From the NCBI GenBank assembly GCA_028281065.1, contig JANQKN010000193.1, positions 2,438 to 34,437 of the forward strand: 32,000 nt of DNA, given 5' to 3'. Below are positions 16,021-31,676 of the stretch, piece after piece; position 1 is the stretch's first letter; every line of letters starts with the position of its first letter. This DNA is from Flavobacteriaceae bacterium. Its GTDB lineage: Bacteria > Bacteroidota > Bacteroidia > Flavobacteriales > Flavobacteriaceae. The notes under the pieces were generated by a model that saw nothing but the letters and a program-made list of their open reading frames with translations, made no database searches and was not told where the DNA came from. Both the position numbers and the translations under genes were made by a program.

Positions 16021-17121
16021 CTACAGGATGCTTTGTTGCTTTTTATAGAAGGCATTGGCCTGCTCTTGCATGAGTTGGCGGGCAATGCGCCGTTTGTATT
16101 CGTACAGTTCTTTTTCCTCGGCTATGTCTGCGTACACGCGGTTGTTTACATCGCGATCTGTAGTAACCAGGATCTCGCGTTGGGTTTTCTGTTGAGCCGT
16201 CCAGGATTGGATGGCTCCTTCCTGCTCGGCCAACTTAAGATCGTATGGTCCTTTTGGGGACAAAAGCTTGGCAAAGATGGGAGAGGTTTCTATAGCCAGG
16301 AACAATAGGAATATAAAAAACGAAGGAAGCCATGGCAATTTGCCCAAGGCATTTACCCGAGCCATGAGGCCGTCGAAACCATCGATTACGGGTTGGGTTT
16401 CCGATACTTTAGTATCGTATTCGGTAGCCAACTGAGTAATTTGAGCTTCTGTGGCTTCTATTTTTGCTTTGTTATCGGTGCGGAGTTGTTGTAAGGCGGC
16501 TAGCTCGGAATCGTGTTTTTCACGTTTTTCCTTATATACAGGGCCTTTTCCAACGATTTCGGTTCCTTTTCTACCTTCGGCTTCGGCGATATAGGTTTCG
16601 TATAGGTTGTTTACTTCGGTTTCCTTGTCGGCTACTTCCTGTTTTAGGTTGTCTATTTCGGCATTCAAAGCCTCTATGGTTGGGGTGTACTGCAAAGCCA
16701 ATTGTTCCTTGTTGTCCAAGGTCATTTGGTTTTTTTCTTCCAGGAGGACTTGGTCTATCTCCTTTTCAAAAATCTTCAACTCCAAGGGTTTTGCAATAAC
16801 AATGGCGATGATAATGGCCAAGAGGATCCTTGGAGAGGCTTGGATGAGTTCATCGAAGAAATTGTCCCTTTTCTTTATGGTTGAGACAATAAAACGGTCT
16901 AAGTTAAAAATGAGCATCCCCCATACAATTCCGAAAAAGATGGAGGGAAGTAGGCTGTCAAAAACTGTAAAAAGGGCGTAGGAAGCTGCAATGGTTGCCA
17001 TTACGGCTGTAAAGAAAACGGTGGCACCAATGCCTGCATATTTGGTCTGTTCCCCTGGGGAGCACTCGTCTAGGATGTCGGTGTCGGCACCGGAACAAAA
17101 GATAAAAAATCGTTGTAACAT
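16021..17121 (-). CDS. DUF4407-like membrane protein with central coiled coil
   Basis: N-terminus MLQRFFIFCSGADTDILDECSPGEQTKYAGIG. There are several TM segments and a long charged helical region. Confidence 0.6.
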   Translation of the reverse strand: MLQRFFIFCSGADTDILDECSPGEQTKYAGIGATVFFTAVMATIAASYALFTVFDSLLPSIFFGIVWGMLIFNLDRFIVSTIKKRDNFFDELIQASPRILLAIIIAIVIAKPLELKIFEKEIDQVLLEEKNQMTLDNKEQLALQYTPTIEALNAEIDNLKQEVADKETEVNNLYETYIAEAEGRKGTEIVGKGPVYKEKREKHDSELAALQQLRTDNKAKIEATEAQITQLATEYDTKVSETQPVIDGFDGLMARVNALGKLPWLPSFFIFLLFLAIETSPIFAKLLSPKGPYDLKLAEQEGAIQSWTAQQKTQREILVTTDRDVNNRVYADIAEEKELYEYKRRIARQLMQEQANAFYKKQQSIL

Positions 17122-17226: not shown

Positions 17227-19332
17227 TTAACTTTTGGACCAGAAATAGACAATGGGTTTCCCATCTTCTCCTCCTACTACCTCTATCCTTGCCATTTTAT
17301 CGGTGTTTTTGGCTAATTTCTTTGCCTTTGCGGTGCTTATCTTTTTGTCATTGTAGTAAAAAGTAGCTCCTTGCTTTATCAAGTCGGTTAAGTCCATAAC
17401 GGGATCCGGCTTGTATACAATGGGCTTTTTGGAAATATGAACCGAAGGATGGTCCGAATCGTACCTGCGGGTTTGGACATGAAGCTTGGGATTGTCTTTA
17501 AGGAGTTGGATAGCCTCGTCCGAGGTAATCTTTCCATCGTCAGAGTAGAAAGTAGCTCCTTTTTTGGCCATTTCCACGATGTGATCCAATGGATTCTGGC
17601 GCAACGAAAAGTCTGGTTTTACTTTCGTCTTGTAGTCATAATTTGTTTTTATTGTGGGAGAAACCTCGATGTTGTAATCTGTTCTTAAGTCAACGGGTTT
17701 TACCTTCAAATTAAGATTAACATCGCTGGGTTGTATTTTCACTAGTTTCCCTTCAACTACAATATTATCAGTACTTTTGGCAGAAGCTACCTTTCCGCTT
17801 TTTTTCATGGCTTTGTTATACGATTCGATTGCCTTTTTGTACTTCTTTACCTGTTCTGGGGTTGCATCGTCAGGGATTGGCGGTGGTGGGGGTATTTGCC
17901 CTTTTGCTACGTTGTTAATATAAATCGCGGGTTTTTGGTTAGGTCCCCTACTAAAACCAAAGGAATAGGATTCTAATTCATCCACAAGCGCAAGGGCTTT
18001 AAAATAGGATATCTTTTTGTTGTTGAAATAAAATTCTCCTCCATCCTTTTGGTATTGAGCCAACATCTCCTTTCGTTCGTTGTTTGGAATCTTTACCAAT
18101 GTAAGGTTTTTGGTTTTTGATACTTTTGAAGGCGGTGGTGGTGGCGGTGGAGAAGGAGCTGTCTTCTTTGCCCTCTCGTAATTGTCCATCGCTTTTTTAT
18201 ACTTTTTTACTTGCGCTGGGGTTGCATCTTCTGGAAGTGGCGGTGGCGGCGGTGGAGGTGCCGGGAATTCTGGAAAAGGTTCCGCAGCACTTCTTTGGGC
18301 GCTCGTCATTTTATCGTAGAGGTATTTCATACGCTCTACATCTTTAAGAAGTATACGCTGCTTGCTTTTATCCATGGCATTGTACTTTCGGGCCAAAGCA
18401 TTGTATTCGTCTATTTCTTTCTGGGATGCTTTCTTCTGAAGGACTTCTTCCTTGGGGGAATCCCCATCTTCTATAAATACGGTCTCTTTCGAGCTAAAAC
18501 CCACTAGTAAAAGGGCAAGCAGGGGAAGGACCAATAGACTCCGTAGCCATAAGGCGGTCTTGGATGTTTGTTTGTTCATAACTGTAAATCGTTTTTTGAT
18601 GAATGAATAATTAATAGAATTTGCCAATGAAGGCGTACAGGCACTTGATGAGAATGCCAAGATTGTATTTTGATAGGCAGCTACGTCTATGCCGTCTTTT
18701 AGCACAGCCCGGTCTGCCAAAAATTCGTGATTCAGTTTTATACTGCGCTTTATGTAGTAGAGTAGTGGGTTAAACCAGAATACTACAAGCAACAGTTCTA
18801 TGAAAAGGATGTCTAGGCTATGCAATTCCTGTGCATGGACTTCTTCATGATCCAATACTTCCTGAGGGATTTCCTTGGACTCGAAGTTCTTTCGGTTCAA
18901 GAAAATATAACTGAAAAAAGTATGCGGCGTTGTAGGGGCTTGTAATAAAACATGGAACAGATTCTTGCTTTTTAAGCGTGGGTTCTTTCTTATTTTTTGC
19001 ACTATAACCGATAGGTTGTTTATGAACCTCCAGCCAAAAAACAGGACTCCAATGGTATAGATGCCCCATAAAAGATGGATGAGGTTTTCTATGGTAAATA
19101 GGGTCTCTTCGGGGGTTTCAAGAACCATATCGGACGTAATGATGGATATCGAACTTTCTTCTGCCACCACATATTCGGTAAAGGTGATAAAAGGAATGAC
19201 AAAGGAAACCAACAATATTCCAATAAGATAGAAGCGCTTTAGCGTATGCATGTTTTCCCGTTCCAGAAAAAGCTTATAGAAAGCAAACAGGGCTGCCAGA
19301 CAGGCTATCGATTTTAAGAGATAGATTTCCAT
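17227..19332 (-). CDS. BlaR1/MecR1-like M56 peptidase-family membrane sensor with a repetitive proline-rich C-terminal region
   Basis: HEEVH zinc motif. N-terminal TM helices. It lies immediately downstream of a BlaI-type repressor (3-nt gap). Confidence 0.8.
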   Translation of the reverse strand: MEIYLLKSIACLAALFAFYKLFLERENMHTLKRFYLIGILLVSFVIPFITFTEYVVAEESSISIITSDMVLETPEETLFTIENLIHLLWGIYTIGVLFFGWRFINNLSVIVQKIRKNPRLKSKNLFHVLLQAPTTPHTFFSYIFLNRKNFESKEIPQEVLDHEEVHAQELHSLDILFIELLLVVFWFNPLLYYIKRSIKLNHEFLADRAVLKDGIDVAAYQNTILAFSSSACTPSLANSINYSFIKKRFTVMNKQTSKTALWLRSLLVLPLLALLLVGFSSKETVFIEDGDSPKEEVLQKKASQKEIDEYNALARKYNAMDKSKQRILLKDVERMKYLYDKMTSAQRSAAEPFPEFPAPPPPPPPLPEDATPAQVKKYKKAMDNYERAKKTAPSPPPPPPPSKVSKTKNLTLVKIPNNERKEMLAQYQKDGGEFYFNNKKISYFKALALVDELESYSFGFSRGPNQKPAIYINNVAKGQIPPPPPIPDDATPEQVKKYKKAIESYNKAMKKSGKVASAKSTDNIVVEGKLVKIQPSDVNLNLKVKPVDLRTDYNIEVSPTIKTNYDYKTKVKPDFSLRQNPLDHIVEMAKKGATFYSDDGKITSDEAIQLLKDNPKLHVQTRRYDSDHPSVHISKKPIVYKPDPVMDLTDLIKQGATFYYNDKKISTAKAKKLAKNTDKMARIEVVGGEDGKPIVYFWSKS

Positions 19333-19334
19333 GA

Positions 19335-19700
19335 TTACTTCTTTTTAATTTGTTCGTCGATTAGACTTCGTAGCTTTTCCAATTCTTCTTTGCTTAGATC
19401 GGTTGCTTCTGTAAAGAAGGAAGCAAACTGCGTAGCACTGTCGTTAAAGAAATTCTTTATCAATCCGTTTACGTGTCTGGAGAAATAGTCTTTCTTTTTT
19501 ACCAATGGGAAGTATTCCCGCGAACGACCCAACTGTTTATAGTCCACAAACTTTTTATCCTGCATTCTCTTTAATAAGGTAGCAACGGTTGTAGTAGCGG
19601 GTCTGGGTTCTGGATAGGCTTCGATGAGGTCTTTCATAAAAGCTTTTTTCTGTTTCCAGAGGATTTGCATGAGCTGTTCTTCGGCATTGGAGAGTTGCAT
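19335..19700 (-). CDS. BlaI/MecI/CopY-family transcriptional repressor
   Basis: 121 aa. The N-terminus LSNAEEQLMQILW is winged-helix type. It is paired with an M56 sensor. Confidence 0.85.
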   Translation of the reverse strand: MQLSNAEEQLMQILWKQKKAFMKDLIEAYPEPRPATTTVATLLKRMQDKKFVDYKQLGRSREYFPLVKKKDYFSRHVNGLIKNFFNDSATQFASFFTEATDLSKEELEKLRSLIDEQIKKK

Positions 19701-23704: not shown

Positions 23705-25393
23705 ATGAAAACGAGATCCATCCTTCGCTTTACGGCCCTTTTTTCCAGTAGCATCCTAGTACTTACTGTGTTCCTATTCGTAGGCTGCAAAGACAAGGCC
23801 CCAAAAGAAGAAAACGTACTGGTAACTGCCGAGCCCCCTCAAAAGGTACACGTAGCCTTTGCCGGTGGTGGTTGGAGGGCCCATACTGCGCACTCTGCCT
23901 GGACCATTTCACTATTGGACAACGGAAACAAAAAAGTGAGCGATGTATTTTCCAGCGTGGGGACCCTATCCTCAAACTCGGGGGGAAGCTGGTTTAGCAC
24001 CATGCTTACGTTTTCCAGTGATTTTGTTTCGGACCTTGAAGCCAAAGATGCCGCCAGCACATGGGCTACCTCCAGTGGTTGGATCGGCAAGCAACGACAA
24101 CTCTTCGATGCTGCTCCCTGCGGAAGTGAACCCGAAGGGATTTACTTGGAGTGTGTGTTCGATTACTATACCAACAAATCCTATACAGGCGGTACCTATT
24201 GGAAGTTGATGGTCGAAAACCTGGTTTTTAAAAGTTATCCGTTGGGAAGTACCACGTTGAGTGATCCTCATCTACCGTGGGCAGCAGACAAGCCTTTGTT
24301 ACTGGCTTCCACACTGCTCACTAATACTGTGGTGCTTAATAGTGAAGATAATGCAACCAACAATCATCGCTATTACCAAGCATGTCTTGCACCCAGTGAG
24401 ACCGTTTTAAATGGCGATTCCGGATCCAATTGCAGTGACGGAAGACCGCCCGATGTTACCCCCGCTACCTTTTCGAGCATTCCCTCAGGCAGTAGTTATC
24501 AGCCCTCGCCCTTTTTTGCCGAATTGGGAACCAATACCCAATCCGGTACCTTTAACCTTGGGTACACAGCGGACTATGTAGTAGAAGATGCGCCCAAATT
24601 TACAGAGCCCTTAAAATTGCCTTTGCGGGACAGTGGTGTACCCGTTATGACGGCTGCCGCGGCTTCCAGTGCAGCGGGAGGATTTGGCGCCAGTGAGCAT
24701 ATTACGGGGGATTTCGATCTTTCCTATCTTTTTGAAGACAACGCCGTAAGTTTTGGCATGTCTGGGGGTGCCGTGAACTATGTGGATGCTAAAGGTTTGG
24801 ACCTAAAAACACTATCCAACCAAAAAGTAGTACGGTTGGCCGATGGAGGCGCGGCAGATAATTCGGGCGTGGCCCAATTGGTACGTTCCCTGCAACTAAA
24901 CAACCAAGCCGATGGATTTCACATTGTGGCTTTCGATAACGTATCGGATATCACCACAGTTGCAGGAGGTGCCAATGTGGGAGTCGACATTGCCAGTTTG
25001 TTTGGGTATAAGGATCCCCTTTGTGTGAATTTAAAACTTACCAAATATTGTATTGAGACACCCGACCTTCAGATTTTCGAAGTGGCTCCGTTAACGGGCA
25101 CGAAGGCTACTTGGACACATCCCCTTAATTTAAAAGATGACAAGAGCGGCAATCAGTTGGTGTATACAAAATACGAAGTCACCACCAAGGCCAATCCTGC
25201 GTTGGGCATTGCGGGAGGCACTAAGGGAACCTTGCATTCCTTTACCTGTGCGTATCCTAAGGCATTTACGGCACCCATAGATGGTGATACCAATTTCGAT
25301 GCCTACAGCAATATGTTCACCTTTATCAACTCGGGATTAAATGCAAACCAAGCAGAAGGACTACAGTATTTACAAGCCGCGTTGGGCTTATAA
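23705..25393 (+). CDS. secreted lipoprotein with cPLA2-like / lysophospholipase (PLA2_B, patatin-clan) catalytic motifs
   Basis: Lipobox FLFVGC. AGGGWRAH corresponds to the GGGFRA oxyanion/Arg motif. SNSGGSWFSTMLTFSSDF corresponds to GLSGSTWYMSTLYSHPDF around the cPLA2 nucleophile Ser. LADGGAADN is a DGG-type catalytic Asp motif. Confidence 0.6.
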   Translation: MKTRSILRFTALFSSSILVLTVFLFVGCKDKAPKEENVLVTAEPPQKVHVAFAGGGWRAHTAHSAWTISLLDNGNKKVSDVFSSVGTLSSNSGGSWFSTMLTFSSDFVSDLEAKDAASTWATSSGWIGKQRQLFDAAPCGSEPEGIYLECVFDYYTNKSYTGGTYWKLMVENLVFKSYPLGSTTLSDPHLPWAADKPLLLASTLLTNTVVLNSEDNATNNHRYYQACLAPSETVLNGDSGSNCSDGRPPDVTPATFSSIPSGSSYQPSPFFAELGTNTQSGTFNLGYTADYVVEDAPKFTEPLKLPLRDSGVPVMTAAAASSAAGGFGASEHITGDFDLSYLFEDNAVSFGMSGGAVNYVDAKGLDLKTLSNQKVVRLADGGAADNSGVAQLVRSLQLNNQADGFHIVAFDNVSDITTVAGGANVGVDIASLFGYKDPLCVNLKLTKYCIETPDLQIFEVAPLTGTKATWTHPLNLKDDKSGNQLVYTKYEVTTKANPALGIAGGTKGTLHSFTCAYPKAFTAPIDGDTNFDAYSNMFTFINSGLNANQAEGLQYLQAALGL

Positions 25394-25957
25394 AACCCTA
25401 GCGGTTTTGGTTTATTAGAACTGGTCTGCCCTGAGCGGAGTCGAAATGTTTAAGGTTTAAGAAAGAAAAGTATTCCAAATTGGAATTTTACTTTCACGTT
25501 CTTTTTTCATTGATAAAAAAGAACCAAAAAATCTAGCCTGCCGATTCTTCTTCACCCATAGCATCCTCAATGCTGAACAAAATGAACTCGCTCCGATGGG
25601 CTCAAACAGCATTTTGTTCTTAACGCCTTTTCGGACTATGGGTCCCGAAGTCGAATCGAAGGCAGGATTGCCTCGACGTAACACTTTACCCTTTTATACA
25701 AGATAGGCGCAGTCAAGCTCCGAGACTCAGGTCAGCTGGAGGATGACCGCGGAGTTGACAAGTCGGTTTTCAGCGGGGCTGAAAAATCCCTTATAAAAGT
25801 GCCCTTTTCTTTGCACAAGCAAAGAAAATGAACATATAAAAATTAATCTCTGTAATATAAATGACAAAAATTTTTACATAAGACAATTATTTTGTCATGC
25901 CCCACACCCATGCACCACAACGGTACCCAACACTTTTACGGAAAACCGCTTCTGTAT

Positions 25958-26000
25958 ATTGGGAGAAAAAACCTACCTTTAGGGTTCTCCCCAGTTTTTA
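25958..26000 (+). repeat. direct repeat copy R2
   Basis: attgggagaaaaaacctacctttagggttctccccagttttta. See R1. Confidence 0.8.
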
Positions 26001-26153
26001 TTCTAGTAGATGGAAGGCTGTTCCTTTGGTAAGGGATGGTCTGATGGGGTGTGGTGTGGGGTTTTGCTAGCGGGTATTTATATAGTTTAAAAATATTTGA
26101 ATGGGAATCAAGTAACTCTTCGATAGATAGGTGATTGAAAGTTGAATAACGAA

Positions 26154-26705
26154 ATGGAAAAATTAATATCAAAGCAATTAATGTCTAAGGTTAGAAATGA
26201 AGTTCTGACAGAGTCCTTTAAAATTTTTTCTGATGCAAGTGAAAATAGAGAAAGGAAAAAGCGGACTTATGAGATATCAGTTTTTCTTTCACATAAGCAC
26301 AATGAAACTGAAATTATTAAACAAGCAGTAATACTATTTAAAGGGCTTGGAGTCAATGTTTATGTTGATTGGCTAGATTCTGAGATGCCAAAAACAACCA
26401 ATGGATATACAGCAAAAAAAATAAAGGAAAGAATTAGACAATGTGACAAGTTTGTTTTATTAGCTACAGAGCGGGCAATAGAGTCGAAATGGTGTAATTG
26501 GGAATTAGGTTATGGAGATTCTCAAAAATACTCCAAAGACATAGCTGTTATGCCAATAACAAATACTGAGGGGGGAGCTTTTAGCGGGAGTGAATATTTA
26601 GCAATTTATCCTATAATTACTTCTGGCTTTACTTATTCAACAGGAACGTATTATGTCGAATTTGAAGGAAAAAAAGTTAAATTGTCTGAGTGGTTAAAAA
26701 ACTGA
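26154..26705 (+). CDS. TIR domain protein
   Basis: The core ISVFLSHKHNE ... GVNVYVDW ... CDKFVLLATERAIESKWCNWELGYGD follows the bacterial TIR pattern: FISH strand A, then W-x-x-E with the putative catalytic Glu. I prefer the ATG at 26154. The track uses the TTG at 26142. Confidence 0.7.
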   Translation: MEKLISKQLMSKVRNEVLTESFKIFSDASENRERKKRTYEISVFLSHKHNETEIIKQAVILFKGLGVNVYVDWLDSEMPKTTNGYTAKKIKERIRQCDKFVLLATERAIESKWCNWELGYGDSQKYSKDIAVMPITNTEGGAFSGSEYLAIYPIITSGFTYSTGTYYVEFEGKKVKLSEWLKN

Positions 26706-26709
26706 TATT

Positions 26710-27141
26710 ATGGATGATAAAGAAATATTACATAAAGAAATTGATCTAATTCAAGGAGTAATTAACCGAATGGCAAATAACTCGTTTTTGCTAAAAGGAT
26801 GGACAATTGCAATAATTGTAGGTGTTTTAGCACTTACTAAAGATACATTGTTGACCAATGACATAACTTATTTTTCAATTATACTCCTCATTCCTCTAAT
26901 CGCATTTTGGTATTTGGATGCATTTTTCTTACACAAAGAAAGGTGCTATATAAAGTTGTATGATTGGGTTGTTGAAAACAGGTCAGAAACTAATGATTAT
27001 CTATACAACTTAGATTATAGAAGATTTAAAAACGACGTAGATAATATTTGGAAAATAATGTGGTCATCAACTCTTATAGTCTTCTATGGGATAACGGCTC
27101 TAATTTTAGTAGGGATTACAATTTATAATATAACAATTTAA
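26710..27141 (+). CDS. small (143 aa) predicted 3-TM membrane protein of unknown family
   Basis: Hydrophobic segments are LLKGWTIAIIVGVLAL, FSIILLIPLIAFWYLDAFFL and STLIVFYGITALILVGITIY. A K/R-rich loop lies between TM2 and TM3. The start is 4 nt after the upstream stop and the stop is 1 nt before the next start. Confidence 0.65.
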   Translation: MDDKEILHKEIDLIQGVINRMANNSFLLKGWTIAIIVGVLALTKDTLLTNDITYFSIILLIPLIAFWYLDAFFLHKERCYIKLYDWVVENRSETNDYLYNLDYRRFKNDVDNIWKIMWSSTLIVFYGITALILVGITIYNITI

Positions 27142-27142
27142 A

Positions 27143-27814
27143 ATGGGCAAGAAAATATTCGTATCCTACAAATATGCAGATAATAAAGTCGAAAAACTTC
27201 CAAGCAAGGAATGGTTTGAAAGTACTACTCCAAGGGATTATGTTGATGAGTTTGAAAGGAAATTGGACAAAGAAGATGATATTTATAAAGGTGAATCAGA
27301 TGGGGAAGATTTAAGTCATCTTTCTGAGATTACCATTGAAGCAAAGCTTAGAGATAGGATTTATGATAGTTCTGTGACAATAATTTTTGTTTCAAAAGGG
27401 ATGAAAGAACTAGGAAAGTCTGAAAATCAACAATGGATTCCTTGGGAAATTAGCTACTCACTTAAAGAAATATCTAGAGGAGGTAGAACGAGTCAAACGA
27501 ATGCAGTTTTAGTAGTTGTACTTCCAGACGAAAATGGATCATATGATTATTATATGTATCATAATCCTGAGTGTGACAGTACTACATATAGAACTGACCA
27601 AATGTTTCCGATAATGAGAGACAATATGTTCAATCAGAGAAAACCAAAAACAAAGGAATGCAATGGGAAAATTATTTATTATGGTTACTTTTCTTATATC
27701 TACTCTGTTAAGTGGGAATATTTTAAATCGGATTATAAAAGATATGTAAACATTGCAGTTTCAATTTTTGAGAATCGTGACAACTACGAAATAAAAAAAG
27801 AACTTGAAAGATGA
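27143..27814 (+). CDS. ThsB-like TIR protein (DUF1863 / MTH538 TIR-like type)
   Basis: KKIFVSYKYADN at the N-terminus. The segment IEAKLRDRIYDSSVTIIFVSKGM...QWIPWEISYSLKE parallels the Thoeris ThsB pattern, including the W-x-x-E Glu. Confidence 0.7.
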   Translation: MGKKIFVSYKYADNKVEKLPSKEWFESTTPRDYVDEFERKLDKEDDIYKGESDGEDLSHLSEITIEAKLRDRIYDSSVTIIFVSKGMKELGKSENQQWIPWEISYSLKEISRGGRTSQTNAVLVVVLPDENGSYDYYMYHNPECDSTTYRTDQMFPIMRDNMFNQRKPKTKECNGKIIYYGYFSYIYSVKWEYFKSDYKRYVNIAVSIFENRDNYEIKKELER

Positions 27815-27958: not shown

Positions 27959-28495
27959 GTGTTCTGGAAAAGAAAGAAAAAGAAATCAAATGAATTTAAA
28001 TGCAGGGAATGCGGGAAAGCCCATGAAGAATGGCCTGCCTTAGCTTTTAAGTCCCCTTATAATTATGCCTGTCTTTCTGATCAAGCCCAAAAAGAAAGGG
28101 GAAAATTGGATTCAGATTTTTGCCAAATCAAGCACGATGAGCAAACAGATCGATTTATTAGGGTCACCCTAACACAAAAAGTAAACGATCATTGCGAGGA
28201 TTTGGAATATGGGCTTTGGGTTTCCCTTAGTGAAAAGAGCTTTTTTGATTATCTAGAAAATTTTGATAATAAAAATCATAAAGTAATCTATTTCGGGTGG
28301 CTGTGTAGTAACATCCCTGAGTATGGAGATACCATGTCGATTCCTTGCGATGTAAAGACAAGAACTGGAAACTCTAGGCCAGAAATAATTCCGCATAATG
28401 ACCATGACCATCCTTTTGTAACAGACTATTACAACGGAATAACTAAAGAGGAAGCCGAGAAGAGAATAAATAAAATGCTGGAAAACGTTAAGTAA
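27959..28495 (+). CDS. DUF2199-family protein
   Basis: GTG start. CRECGKAHEEWPALAFKSPYNY ... DRFIRVTL ... YGLWVSLSEKSF matches the DUF2199 pattern, from recall. Confidence 0.6.
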   Translation: MFWKRKKKKSNEFKCRECGKAHEEWPALAFKSPYNYACLSDQAQKERGKLDSDFCQIKHDEQTDRFIRVTLTQKVNDHCEDLEYGLWVSLSEKSFFDYLENFDNKNHKVIYFGWLCSNIPEYGDTMSIPCDVKTRTGNSRPEIIPHNDHDHPFVTDYYNGITKEEAEKRINKMLENVK

Positions 28496-29273: not shown

Positions 29274-29882
29274 TTAAGCTTCCTCAATGGTCCTAAAAGT
29301 CAGGTTTACCCGTGGGGTTTTTACCAATTTAGTAGGGGGGAGCCGATGCAACCAATGGGTTTGCGTAGTACCTTTCATGACCAATAGACTGCCATGTTCC
29401 AAAAGGAGCTCTACCTTTTGTTTGGATACCTTGTGCTTAAAGGCAAACTTCCGTACCGCCCCCAAACTTAAGGATCCAATGGCCCCGTTGCGTTTTAGGT
29501 CTTTTTCGCCATCACTGTGCCAAGCCATGCCCTCACTTCCATCGTGGTATAAGTTTAACAAACAGGAATTAAAGGTTTCCTTGGTTTTCTGTTCTACAAG
29601 TTCCTTTAGTTCGAGCAATTCGGGCGTCCAGGGTAGGGCGAGTTTGGTGGTGTTGGAATAGGTATATTCAAAAGGCTTTTCGGCATACCAGGCGACCTTT
29701 CGTTTGGTGACGATCTTTTTACCATAAATAATAGCCTCGTCGTTTTTCCATGCGATGGTCTCTAGCAATTGCTTCAAATAGTAATTGGCGCGTTCCTGTG
29801 TAAGTATGGCGCCATAATAATGCACCGTACCCTCTTTGGGCAATAGGTTTCGGGTAGGATCTAAAGCATTAAACAAGTCCAT
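29274..29882 (-). CDS. alkB: alpha-ketoglutarate/Fe(II)-dependent DNA dioxygenase AlkB
   Basis: Motifs LLNLYHDGSEGMAWHSDGE, THWLHRLP and RVNLTFR. Confidence 0.85.
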   Translation of the reverse strand: MDLFNALDPTRNLLPKEGTVHYYGAILTQERANYYLKQLLETIAWKNDEAIIYGKKIVTKRKVAWYAEKPFEYTYSNTTKLALPWTPELLELKELVEQKTKETFNSCLLNLYHDGSEGMAWHSDGEKDLKRNGAIGSLSLGAVRKFAFKHKVSKQKVELLLEHGSLLVMKGTTQTHWLHRLPPTKLVKTPRVNLTFRTIEEA

Positions 29883-30114
29883 TTTTCCATTTTTTATAAG
29901 CGTCCCTCATACAATGCCCGCAAGGTCTGTAGCCGTTTTGCAGGGCATCTTTTTCCGAGGCAAAAAACACACGGTTTTCCCGTTTCATTCGCTTACCCGA
30001 TTTACAGTGCAAGGTTCCATAAATCTTCAGGTTTTTGTTTCCCCCAAAGATAATTTTTTGTGTTTTAATTTCTTGGTATAAGGCATTTTTGGAAAGTTCC
30101 GAATGCAGTATCAT
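29869..30114 (-). CDS. stand-alone Ada N-terminal-type metal-binding domain protein
   Basis: LHCKSGKRMKRENRVFFASEKDALQNGYRPCGHC. I prefer the ATG at 30114 (MILHSEL). An alternative ATG is at 30129. Confidence 0.7.
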   Translation of the reverse strand: MILHSELSKNALYQEIKTQKIIFGGNKNLKIYGTLHCKSGKRMKRENRVFFASEKDALQNGYRPCGHCMRDAYKKWKNGLV

Positions 30115-30115
30115 A

Positions 30116-30841
30116 TTAACTTGCGGCATCGTGAAATATCACACCCAGTGTATGGCGTTGCCCCTTGTGTAGCTCACTTACCCCATGTTTCATCGTTGCC
30201 CGGTAATAACCCCGAGTGCCTTTTATGGGCCTAAATTGGGTAGTAAACAAGAGCATATCCCCTTTTTTAAGCGGTACCACTATGGCCTTGGACTGTGCCC
30301 TGGGCGTTTGTTGGGTAAGTACAAATTCCCCTCCTGTAAAATCTTTATTGGGTTCGCTCAATAAGAAAGCGGCTTGTATGGGGAAATAGATATCGCCGTA
30401 TAAATCCTGATGCAAGGTGTTAAATCCCCCTTTCCCGTAGCGTAAGATCAAGGGAGTGGGCTTCAACTGTCCGTGGTCATGGCATAGGGCTTGCAATTCT
30501 TGGAGTGTTTTGGGAAAATGCTTGTCAATCTTAAGCACCTTCATCCATGCATTGGCAATGGGCGCCAGTTTGGGGTATATCCTTTCCCGAAGGGTCTGTA
30601 GCATTTCAGGTAGCGGATAGTCGAAGTATTTGTACTCACCTAAACCAAAACGGTACCGTTCCATGATCACGGTCTTTCGATAGCCCGTGGGTTTATCGTA
30701 CAAATCCACCCATGTGGCACATTGCTTTTCCGATAGGAATTTGGGTACGATGGCATACCCTTTTTCATGCATGTTCTCGGTAATTTTTGCCCAATCCAAG
30801 GCTTCTATGTGTAGGTCTACGTGCTCCATTTTCCTATACAT
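30116..30841 (-). CDS. 2OG-Fe(II) oxygenase-family protein of the type co-operonic with ada/alkB
   Basis: HxD in TLHQDLYGD and a distal His in ATMKHGVSEL. It overlaps both neighbours. Confidence 0.6.
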   Translation of the reverse strand: MYRKMEHVDLHIEALDWAKITENMHEKGYAIVPKFLSEKQCATWVDLYDKPTGYRKTVIMERYRFGLGEYKYFDYPLPEMLQTLRERIYPKLAPIANAWMKVLKIDKHFPKTLQELQALCHDHGQLKPTPLILRYGKGGFNTLHQDLYGDIYFPIQAAFLLSEPNKDFTGGEFVLTQQTPRAQSKAIVVPLKKGDMLLFTTQFRPIKGTRGYYRATMKHGVSELHKGQRHTLGVIFHDAAS

Positions 30842-31676
30842 TAACCTGTGCCGCTTCCCAACCGATCATGGCCGATTTCCGGGTGGGACCCCACATATAT
30901 CCACCTATGTTCCCCGATGCCTGTATAACCCTATGACAAGGGATTAAGAATGCTACAGGATTGCTGCCGACGGCCGTACCTATGGCCCTTGCTGCTTTAG
31001 GTCGTTCAATTTCCTTTGCAATGCTGCCGTAGGTGGTTACATCGCCCATGGGGATCTTTAAAAGGGTTTCCCAAACCTTTAACTGAAATGGCGTACCGTG
31101 CAGATGCAGTTTTATTTCGTTCAATTTGCTCCAATCATGCTGAAAAATAAATAAGGCATCTTGCTGTATCGTATCTACCACTTGATTGTATACAGCATTG
31201 GGGAACTTCTGCTGTAAACTTTCAAAAGCTTCTTCTTTGTTATTAAAAAAAGCCATGTAGCAAATGCCTTTAGGGGTAGAGGCTACCAATAGGTGCCCGA
31301 AGGGACTTTCGGCAAAACTGTAGTTGATAGAAAGGTTCGCACCGCCGTTTTTAAATTCGCCAGGGGTCATTCCTTCTATGTTTACAAAGAGGTCGTGCAA
31401 CCTGCCTGTGCCGGACAATCCCATTTCGTGGGCCGTATCGAATAGTGTAGCTTGCTTTTCTTTTAATAGGCCCTTGGCGTAGTTAATACTTAGATATTGC
31501 ATAAACTTTTTGGGGCTTACCCCCGCCCAGTTTGTAAAGAGCCGCTGAAAATGATAAGGGCTTATATGTACAGCTGCTGCAATATCGTTTAAAGAAGGTT
31601 GTTCCTTAAAGTTTTCGTTTATATAATCGATCGCTACCGCAATCCGATCATAATTTAATTGTTCCTGTTTTGTCAT
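30834..31676 (-). CDS. AraC-type HTH regulator fused to methylated-DNA-protein-cysteine methyltransferase (Ada/Ogt-like)
   Basis: The N-terminus has an AraC HTH (LNDIAAAVHISPYHFQRLF). The C-terminus has the MGMT active site IPCHRVI. Confidence 0.8.
   Translation of the reverse strand: MTKQEQLNYDRIAVAIDYINENFKEQPSLNDIAAAVHISPYHFQRLFTNWAGVSPKKFMQYLSINYAKGLLKEKQATLFDTAHEMGLSGTGRLHDLFVNIEGMTPGEFKNGGANLSINYSFAESPFGHLLVASTPKGICYMAFFNNKEEAFESLQQKFPNAVYNQVVDTIQQDALFIFQHDWSKLNEIKLHLHGTPFQLKVWETLLKIPMGDVTTYGSIAKEIERPKAARAIGTAVGSNPVAFLIPCHRVIQASGNIGGYMWGPTRKSAMIGWEAAQVNV

Follow-up and report, generated by a model that had tools for sequence, protein, structure and literature searches.

A probable type V Thoeris cassette with ThsB proteins of two clades around one ThsF homologue in a Flavobacteriaceae bacterium

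INTRODUCTION

In a stretch of 32,000 nucleotides from a Flavobacteriaceae bacterium (the whole of which was analyzed and is called the window here), two genes for TIR proteins enclose a gene for a small membrane protein. A sequence-only reading of the window took this trio for an undescribed defence system without any known Thoeris effector. The question raised by the locus is whether it represents a new system or a copy of one that has already been described.

Type V Thoeris, composed of ThsB and ThsF, was named and validated against phage in December 2025 (Yirmiya et al., bioRxiv 10.64898/2025.12.03.692087). That study validated two systems, one from Bacillus thuringiensis DAR 81934 and the other from Bacillus sp. 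1NLA3E, each with one ThsB, and reported an enrichment of the type in Bacteroidota. The effector, ThsF, spans the membrane with three helices, and AlphaFold3 models it as a heptamer that has basic pockets. The ThsB of B. thuringiensis produces 3'cADPR upon infection; for cells with the B. thuringiensis system, 3'cADPR supplied from outside is toxic even without infection, and the Tad1 sponge lowers type V defence.

RESULTS

Layout of the cassette

The open reading frame (ORF) list contains exactly three plus-strand ORFs at the locus, separated by gaps of 4 nt and then 1 nt, which bears out the close packing described from the letters alone. The features are as follows (positions are those of the window).

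26100 to 27800, no strand: low-GC islet coinciding with the three genes (100-nt and 500-nt GC profiles, per-gene GC)
26142 to 26705, plus strand: gene 1, thsB-1, TIR-domain putative signal synthase, 187 aa, TTG start (ORF list); alternative starts of other gene callers are ATG at 26154 (183 aa) or ATG at 26181 (174 aa)
26710 to 27141, plus strand: gene 2, thsF, homologue of the three-helix membrane effector, 143 aa (ORF list)
27143 to 27814, plus strand: gene 3, thsB-2, second TIR/ThsB protein, 223 aa (ORF list)

The true start of gene 1 is uncertain. The GC content is 0.321 for gene 1, 0.287 for gene 2, and 0.317 for gene 3, compared with 0.483 for the upstream gene and 0.427 for the whole window. 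It stays at 0.31 to 0.34 in four consecutive 500-nt windows, with a fall that starts at about 26100 and stops at about 27800. The earlier estimate that the trio lies some ten GC points below its flanks was thus sound (29 to 32% versus 43% for the window).

Two TIR proteins of different clades

The outer genes had been read as a TIR protein and a ThsB-like TIR protein, and profile matches agree. Protein 1, with its TIR domain at about residues 47 to 140 (numbering from the TTG start), matches Pfam TIR_2 with 37.9 bits (curated cut-off 28, E = 3e-9), the PADLOC ThsB model PDLC00423 (3e-53), and PDB chain 8btn_B, a TIR protein (2.4e-17). Protein 3 has a TIR core at about residues 6 to 129, followed by a conserved C-terminal extension. 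It matches Pfam ThsB_TIR with 32.1 bits (curated cut-off 21.2, E = 1.6e-7) and, at full length, both the PADLOC ThsB model PDLC00428 (1.2e-75) and PDB 9vyl_A, "Putative cyclic ADP-D-ribose synthase TIR1" (E = 1e-64). The "TIR1" in that name presumably follows the UniProt naming for multi-TIR Thoeris loci. Literature searches for the PDB codes 9VYL and 8BTN and for 8xMP returned nothing useful.

The motifs quoted from the letters are all present (FLSHKH and SKWCNWELG in protein 1; KKIFVSYKYAD, SSVTIIFVS, and QWIPWEISY in protein 3). The claim that both proteins keep the catalytic Glu of a W-x-x-E motif holds for the residue but not for the motif: the putative catalytic residues, E121 in protein 1 and E102 in protein 3, line up with the Glu in the WVRYE motif of ThsB from B. 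cereus MSX-D12, and the actual spacing is W-x-x-x-E (WCNWE and WIPWE).

Gene 1 is 84% identical over 108 aa to the TIR domain IMG 2709405277 (TIR cluster 2612357774), and gene 3 shares 52% identity over 206 aa with IMG 2509795226 (cluster 2742576382); both reference domains are labelled "DUF2270 - Type V" in Table S1 of Yirmiya et al. (bioRxiv 10.64898/2025.12.03.692087). Gene 3 is also 45% identical to another TIR domain with this label in Table S1. The type V ThsB validated from Bacillus sp. 1NLA3E, a member of the same cluster as gene 1 (2612357774), shares 37% identity with gene 1. The two TIR proteins of the cassette match each other only marginally (17% identity, E = 0.08). Homology thus places genes 1 and 3 among the ThsB-type TIR proteins, in two different clades.

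The middle gene encodes a ThsF homologue

We located a protein with 100% identity to the type V ThsB validated from B. thuringiensis DAR 81934. In two assemblies, the gene directly downstream of this ThsB encodes a 141-aa protein, in agreement with the consecutive IMG gene numbers that Table S2 gives for TIR and effector (bioRxiv 10.64898/2025.12.03.692087); this protein serves here as the reference ThsF. Some B. cereus and Priestia plasmid loci with relatives of the B. thuringiensis ThsB carry SIR2 or Macro partners and no ThsF.

Gene 2 is 43% identical to the 141-aa reference (BLASTP, E = 2e-33), and a profile of 85 diverse relatives aligns with the B. thuringiensis ThsF over 133 columns (hhalign, probability 100%, E = 2e-38). 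At the level of sequence comparison, gene 2 is clearly a homologue of ThsF. The earlier description of a 143-aa protein with three membrane helices also stands, being in agreement with the hydropathy profile (TM1 at about 30 to 48, TM2 at about 52 to 72, TM3 at about 119 to 141) and with an all-helical AlphaFold2 single-chain model (mean pLDDT 81). The predicted layout adds an N-terminal cytosolic amphipathic helix at about residues 3 to 29 and a conserved cytosolic segment at 73 to 118. Among relatives at 32 to 64% identity, the residues E10, Q15, R20, K29, W31, F66, W67, D70, E77, and Y84 are nearly invariant, and they concentrate in the two predicted cytosolic segments. The conserved basic residues R20, K29, R78, R91, and R105 also lie within these segments, which is consistent with basic pockets but is not a test of them.

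Domain databases do not detect ThsF, which no Pfam or NCBIfam model recognizes. No match to PF10028 (DUF2270) was obtained by hmmscan for gene 2 (E up to 1) or its 85 relatives; the validated B. thuringiensis ThsF likewise has none (E up to 10), so the lack of this domain in gene 2 says nothing about membership. Against Pfam, gene 2 and its relatives gave only scattered sub-threshold matches to DUF3278, DUF4395, and CyanoTRADDas_TM, and Foldseek found no match for ThsF in the PDB.

Against the models of PADLOC, a tool that had been proposed as a check on the trio, gene 2 matched all four PDC-M50A models (best 1.7e-40, nearly full length); the family of gene 2 was already modelled as a candidate in PADLOC-DB v2.0.0 (2023). 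The likeness to PDC-M50 concerns its component PDC-M50A. PDC entries are unpublished, unvalidated candidates (PMC11811056), and no mention of PDC-M50 was found in the literature searched.

ThsF genes and their TIR neighbours

The ThsF family is large, with 4103 representatives when clustered at 50% identity; the closest relatives of the cassette come from Bacteroidota. We examined 80 ThsF-family loci and the 124 immediate same-strand neighbours of their ThsF genes, among which Pfam matches were to ThsB_TIR in 69 and to TIR_2 in 38. At least 61 of the 80 loci have an adjoining TIR gene, and at least eight TIR clades partner the family. The pairing of ThsF with TIR also occurs on bacterial and haloarchaeal plasmids. 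TIR genes stand on both sides of ThsF in 27 of the 80 loci, nearly always from different clades. Six of these 27 have the clade-1 TIR, ThsF, and clade-3 TIR in the order seen here, and one more has the reverse order. The trio thus also occurs at other loci.

DISCUSSION

Assignment to type V Thoeris

The cassette is real but not new: it is an ordinary copy of a known defence type. It contains TIR ThsB genes that keep the TIR Glu and resemble the type V entries of Yirmiya et al., and between them a ThsF homologue with three predicted helices. We therefore assign it, with a probability of roughly 85%, to type V Thoeris in a two-sensor layout, thsB-thsF-thsB, with a mechanism that would follow that of the validated homologue. 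The proposal that the operon is Thoeris-like, with a minimal membrane protein acting as effector partner to the TIRs, gains support from the homology to ThsF. The claim of an undescribed system without a known Thoeris effector is not supported, since gene 2 is homologous to ThsF, type V had already been named, and Table S1 labels the TIR relatives as type V. That the trio belongs to a named subtype is the very finding by which the sequence-only reading had said that it would fall.

Compared with the validated systems, the effector family, length, and three-helix layout are those of the B. thuringiensis ThsF, gene 1 shares its TIR cluster with the 1NLA3E ThsB, and Table S1 assigns close relatives of both TIRs to type V. 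The reported enrichment of the type in Bacteroidota is in agreement with the nearest relatives of the cassette. However, ThsF is flanked here by two ThsB proteins of different clades, whereas both validated operons have one ThsB, and cluster 2734579397, the clade of the B. thuringiensis ThsB, includes neither TIR of the cassette; it is the sole clade with a cognate system shown to respond to 3'cADPR.

Other Thoeris types resemble the cassette in part. As in type II (ThsB with TM-Macro), an ADP-ribose-derived signal made by a TIR would act on a membrane-disrupting effector, but the type II signal is His-ADPR, and ThsF here is a 143-aa protein with no Pfam domain and no Macro domain; no Macro domain occurs in the window. 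SIR2 and SLOG domains, which would point to the ThsA of type I, were also absent from the non-nested ORFs of at least 120 aa in the window. Type VII combines ThsB with the SLATT effector ThsH, also a small membrane-spanning protein, whose oligomerization is predicted to follow the binding of a cADPR isomer. The signal of type VII is canonical cADPR, however, and SLATT/DUF4231, a family against which it had been suggested that the middle protein be checked, was ruled out, as neither gene 2 nor any of its 85 relatives has such a Pfam match. The type IX operon of Paenibacillus macerans 8244 (TIR/TIR-SLOG/TIR) has flanking TIRs of the same two clusters as the cassette (31% identical to gene 1 and 40% to gene 3), but its central effector is a TIR-SLOG protein and not ThsF. 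This operon gave no defence in B. subtilis (bioRxiv 10.64898/2025.12.03.692087).

Proposed mechanism and the role of two TIRs

By analogy with the validated homologous system, phage infection would activate either ThsB, each of which probably senses different phage cues. The active TIR would turn NAD+ into a cyclic ADP-ribose signal, most likely 3'cADPR, and the signal would be bound by a ring-shaped homo-oligomer of ThsF, in basic pockets that its conserved cytosolic segments form. The ring would then disrupt the membrane, and the infection would be aborted. The role of the second TIR is one that we infer, because both validated type V systems have a single ThsB. The activating molecule of the cassette is uncertain, given that the 1NLA3E ThsB belongs to the cluster of gene 1 and that 3'cADPR was without effect in its system.

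It could be argued that in this Bacteroidota clade the architecture is that of type V but the chemistry is not: the two dissimilar ThsB proteins might not be redundant sensors but might make distinct or joint signals, or act as a hetero-complex or in sequential steps, in which case ThsF would respond to some other molecule and not to 3'cADPR. We consider this unlikely, although several observations speak for it. 3'cADPR is not toxic in the 1NLA3E system (bioRxiv 10.64898/2025.12.03.692087), whose ThsB shares cluster 2612357774 with gene 1; clusters 2612357774 and 2742576382 also flank a different effector in the P. macerans type IX operon; and the two TIR genes present in about a third of the ThsF loci (27 of 80) are nearly always of different clades. 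However, the 1NLA3E system defends with its single ThsB, lysates of which activated a 3'cADPR-specific ThsA reporter (bioRxiv 10.64898/2025.12.03.692087). In addition, each TIR clade of the cassette can be the sole partner of ThsF (clade 1 in loci L004, L011, and L020; clade 3 in L013, L045, and L078), and clade-1 TIRs also occur with other second TIRs, such as cluster 2661146773 in seven loci. Such modular pairing of TIR and ThsF is more in keeping with independent sensors than with two TIRs that depend on each other.

Origin of the islet

The low-GC islet is probably a horizontally acquired cassette, a self-contained 1.7-kb module in an otherwise housekeeping chromosomal region. It lies between a gene for a 562-aa lipoprotein and a DUF2199 gene. 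The flanking genes are metabolic or housekeeping, and the window contains no defence island and no other defence genes around the cassette. At the islet borders we found no convincing direct or inverted repeats, no match to any Rfam family, tRNA families included, and no tRNA-like RNA; the motif TAnnTTTG was not found upstream of the cassette. The foreign GC content and the isolation of the cassette could suggest a silent or decaying remnant with no current function in the host. In the same direction, no consensus promoter or terminator signal exceeded the shuffled background; the sigma-70 promoter scan, however, is inapplicable to Bacteroidota-type promoters. A remnant is very improbable in view of three intact, tightly coupled ORFs that are full length relative to their homologues and that keep the near-invariant family residues and both putative catalytic Glu residues.

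Many bacterial TIRs act as NADases. Least likely of all is the alternative, raised by the sequence-only reading and compatible with the Glu kept in both proteins, that the TIRs deplete NAD+ directly with the membrane protein as an anchor, gate, or sensor: the homologous validated ThsB makes a signal, 3'cADPR, which is toxic when added without infection, the partnership of ThsF with at least eight TIR clades is the pattern of a common downstream effector and not of a dedicated anchor, and neither TIR protein has membrane segments or a recognizable docking domain (sequence and Pfam).

Implications

Read as type V Thoeris, the cassette offers a compact instance from Bacteroidota of a defence type whose validation comes from Bacillus alone, and two different TIR sensors around one ThsF are a common layout among the loci examined. 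Because ThsF is not seen by Pfam or NCBIfam, such cassettes look novel from domain annotation, and many false leads would disappear with a model built for ThsF. Two questions could be put to the cassette: whether a pair of ThsB proteins widens the range of phages recognized, and what signal ThsF responds to in systems other than that of B. thuringiensis.

A three-gene cassette of low GC content

The three closely spaced ORFs of low GC content described in the sequence-only reading were confirmed by their coordinates, by intergenic gaps of 4 nt (genes 1/2) and 1 nt (genes 2/3) and by the GC profile. The GC content is 0.321, 0.287 and 0.317 in genes 1, 2 and 3, respectively, compared with 0.427 for the window and 0.483 for the upstream gene, and the low-GC stretch, from about 26100 to about 27800, has the extent of the three genes. 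Other gene callers choose a different start for gene 1, either ATG 26154 (giving 183 aa) or 26181 (giving 174 aa).

Features of the cassette and its surroundings
26142-26705, plus strand: gene 1, ORF of 187 aa (protein 1) with a TTG start
26710-27141, plus strand: gene 2, ORF of 143 aa (protein 2)
27143-27814, plus strand: gene 3, ORF of 223 aa (protein 3)
17227-19700 and 16021-17121, minus strand: BlaI-like repressor and BlaR1/M56-like sensor pair, and the adjoining DUF4407 protein
23705-25393: 562-aa protein with a lipoprotein-like N-terminus and a weak PLA2_B (lysophospholipase domain) match below the cut-off (E 0.005)
27959-28495: DUF2199 gene directly 3' of the cassette, GTG start, E 6e-51, intermediate GC of 0.371
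29274-31676, minus strand: adaptive response to alkylation damage (Ada/AlkB/MGMT) cluster
Elsewhere in the window: GH2 and MGH1-like glycosidases; two proline racemases; peptidases; DUF434/DUF5616 genes; a protein with a GldL-like N-terminus

Housekeeping genes make up the remainder of the window, and no further defence genes were found in it. The alkylation damage cluster comprises an AlkB-like 2OG-Fe(II) oxygenase, an Ada zinc-binding protein, an Oxygenase-NA protein and an AraC-HTH/MGMT fusion. Neither flanking repeats nor RNA genes, nor any promoter or terminator signal, were found to mark the borders of the low-GC stretch. The approximately 750 nt upstream of the cassette (25394-26141), with a mixed GC content of 0.24-0.52 per 100 nt, contain neither a convincing ORF nor a match in Rfam, and could be a promoter region or an insertion remnant. 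The DUF2199 gene is absent beside ThsF in the other loci examined and is therefore probably not part of the system.

The outer genes encode predicted ThsB-type TIR proteins

Protein 1 scores above the Pfam cut-off for TIR_2 and protein 3 above that for ThsB_TIR, and both match PADLOC ThsB models (3e-53 and 1e-75, respectively). Protein 3 has a full-length match to PDB 9vyl_A, "Putative cyclic ADP-D-ribose synthase TIR1" (E 1e-64), and for protein 1 there is a match to 8btn_B, a TIR protein (2.4e-17). The motif first read as W-x-x-E is W-x-x-x-E (WCNWE, WIPWE). In an alignment with B. cereus MSX-D12 ThsB, the Glu of its WVRYE motif, known from the Thoeris literature as the catalytic residue, corresponds to E121 in protein 1 and to E102 in protein 3. 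The two proteins are essentially unrelated to each other beyond the fold (17% identity, E 0.08). Among the TIRs listed as "DUF2270 - Type V" in Table S1 of the preprint that defines Thoeris types V to XI (bioRxiv 10.64898/2025.12.03.692087), IMG 2709405277 (cluster 2612357774) is 84% identical to protein 1, and two members of cluster 2742576382 share 52% and 45% identity with protein 3. These matches identify the outer genes as ThsB-type TIR genes.

The middle gene encodes ThsF by homology

In the same preprint (bioRxiv 10.64898/2025.12.03.692087), type V, which is enriched in Bacteroidota, consists of ThsB and ThsF, the latter having three membrane helices and labelled DUF2270/PF10028 by the authors. 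Phage defence was reported for the systems of B. thuringiensis DAR 81934 and Bacillus sp. 1NLA3E; ThsB makes 3'cADPR in an infection-dependent manner, toxicity in cells with the B. thuringiensis system is specific to 3'cADPR, and defence is lost when the Tad1 sponge is co-expressed. AlphaFold3 predicts that seven ThsF protomers form a ring, with basic pockets lying between them.

Protein 2 has no match in Pfam or NCBIfam. It is matched by all four PADLOC PDC-M50A candidate models (best 1.7e-40), PDC entries being unpublished candidates (PMC11811056). The protein has three hydrophobic segments, and its AlphaFold2 model is all-helical (pLDDT 81), with helices at residues 3-43, 51-90, 103-117 and 120-142. 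For a direct test of the effector, the B. thuringiensis ThsB sequence in Table S1 was traced to a 100% identical protein, and the locus of that protein was fetched. Directly 3' lies a gene for a 141-aa protein, a neighbourhood that agrees with Table S2 of the preprint, where the IMG identifiers are consecutive. Since this protein is 43% identical to protein 2 (E 2e-33) and matches a profile of 85 diverse relatives (probability 100%, E 2e-38, 133 columns), protein 2 is identified as ThsF.

By hmmscan, the validated B. thuringiensis ThsF (L085:4773-5198) likewise lacks a PF10028 (DUF2270) match, so the absent Pfam match, the source of the novel look of the cassette, is an annotation gap and not a biological difference. 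The sole match of this ThsF is a weak but full-length one to PF24838, "Octameric membrane protein family (8xMP)" (E 0.012), which one of the 85 relatives also matches (0.033); ThsF may be remotely related to this other small oligomeric membrane family. The validated locus also carries genes for an OLD-like TOPRIM/AAA ATPase and a UvrD helicase (L085:5454-8759), which look like Gabija. It therefore lies in a defence island, whereas the cassette in the window does not.

Among relatives at 32-64% identity, the nearly invariant residues are E10, Q15, I18, R20, M21, S25, F26, K29, W31, F66, W67, L69, D70, L74, E77, Y84 and Y126. They concentrate in the N-terminal amphipathic helix and the segment after TM2, both predicted to be cytosolic, and together with R78, R91 and R105 they form a putative basic face consistent with a nucleotide pocket.

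Judged from sequence, the cassette is a real and intact type V Thoeris system with a common two-ThsB layout. The proposal that TIR proteins act with a small membrane effector in a Thoeris-like manner was sound; the proposal that the system is undescribed is not borne out, type V being already named and classified.

Distribution and TIR partners of ThsF

The ThsF family comprises 1013 proteins in a collection clustered at 90% identity and 4103 representatives at 50% identity (E ≤ 0.001 in both). Among one-genome-per-species contigs it occurs at 455 loci, in Bacteroidota, Bacillota, Pseudomonadota, Planctomycetota and others, including one archaeon. The closest relatives of protein 2 (64-81% identity) are from Bacteroidota. 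Plasmids also carry homologues: there are 133 such records, of which 76 come from Klebsiella or Escherichia, and 82 of the 133, all hosts counted, are classed as conjugative. Haloarchaeal plasmids carry the family at 40-44% identity. Adjoining TIR genes accompany plasmid homologues in Priestia, Klebsiella and the archaeal Halorussus; the plasmid loci looked at include NZ_AP022022.1 (L082) and NZ_CP100004.1 (L088). The cassette was probably gained by horizontal transfer.

Next to 80 ThsF-family genes, 124 immediate neighbours on the same strand were examined; 69 of them match ThsB_TIR and 38 match TIR_2. A local search seeded with the Table S1 TIR clusters found at least one adjoining TIR gene in 61 of the 80 loci, which is a lower bound (in some loci scored as non-TIR by this search, L043 and L072, Pfam does find TIRs), and TIR genes on both sides of ThsF in 27. 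The arrangement of the cassette, with ThsF between a TIR of the protein 1 clade and one of the protein 3 clade, recurs in six loci (L001, L002, L003, L009, L014 and L015) and in the opposite order in one (L040), while in seven loci the protein 1 clade is paired with a TIR of cluster 2661146773. TIRs 40-49% identical to B. thuringiensis ThsB also adjoin ThsF homologues. At least eight TIR clades occur as partners of ThsF, as would be expected if it is a downstream effector that they share.

In four Saprospiraceae/Lewinellaceae loci (L006:1353-4975, L007, L008 and L010), whose ThsF homologues are 61-64% identical to protein 2, a 322-326 aa protein without a Pfam match precedes ThsF in place of the small ThsB, and upstream of it, two genes from ThsF, lies a 728-757 aa EAD11-TIR-AAA_15/AAA_21 ATPase. 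These loci may represent a distinct three-gene variant centred on ThsF.

Proposed signal and mechanism

By analogy with the validated system, phage infection would switch on a ThsB, and its TIR domain would cyclise NAD+-derived ADP-ribose into a signal, most likely 3'cADPR. Binding of the signal by ThsF oligomers would then lead to a breach of the membrane, and the infection would be aborted. A signal other than 3'cADPR, or one made jointly by both TIRs, is conceivable because 3'cADPR caused no toxicity in the type V system of 1NLA3E, which has a ThsB from the TIR cluster of protein 1 (bioRxiv 10.64898/2025.12.03.692087), and because the TIR clusters of proteins 1 and 3 also flank a TIR-SLOG effector in the type IX operon of P. 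macerans; but TIR clades are combined around ThsF in a modular way, which speaks against an obligate TIR pair, and we consider such a signal unlikely. Multiple thsB genes per locus are a known feature of Thoeris, type I included. In the type V system proposed here, the two ThsBs most likely broaden the range of phages that are sensed.
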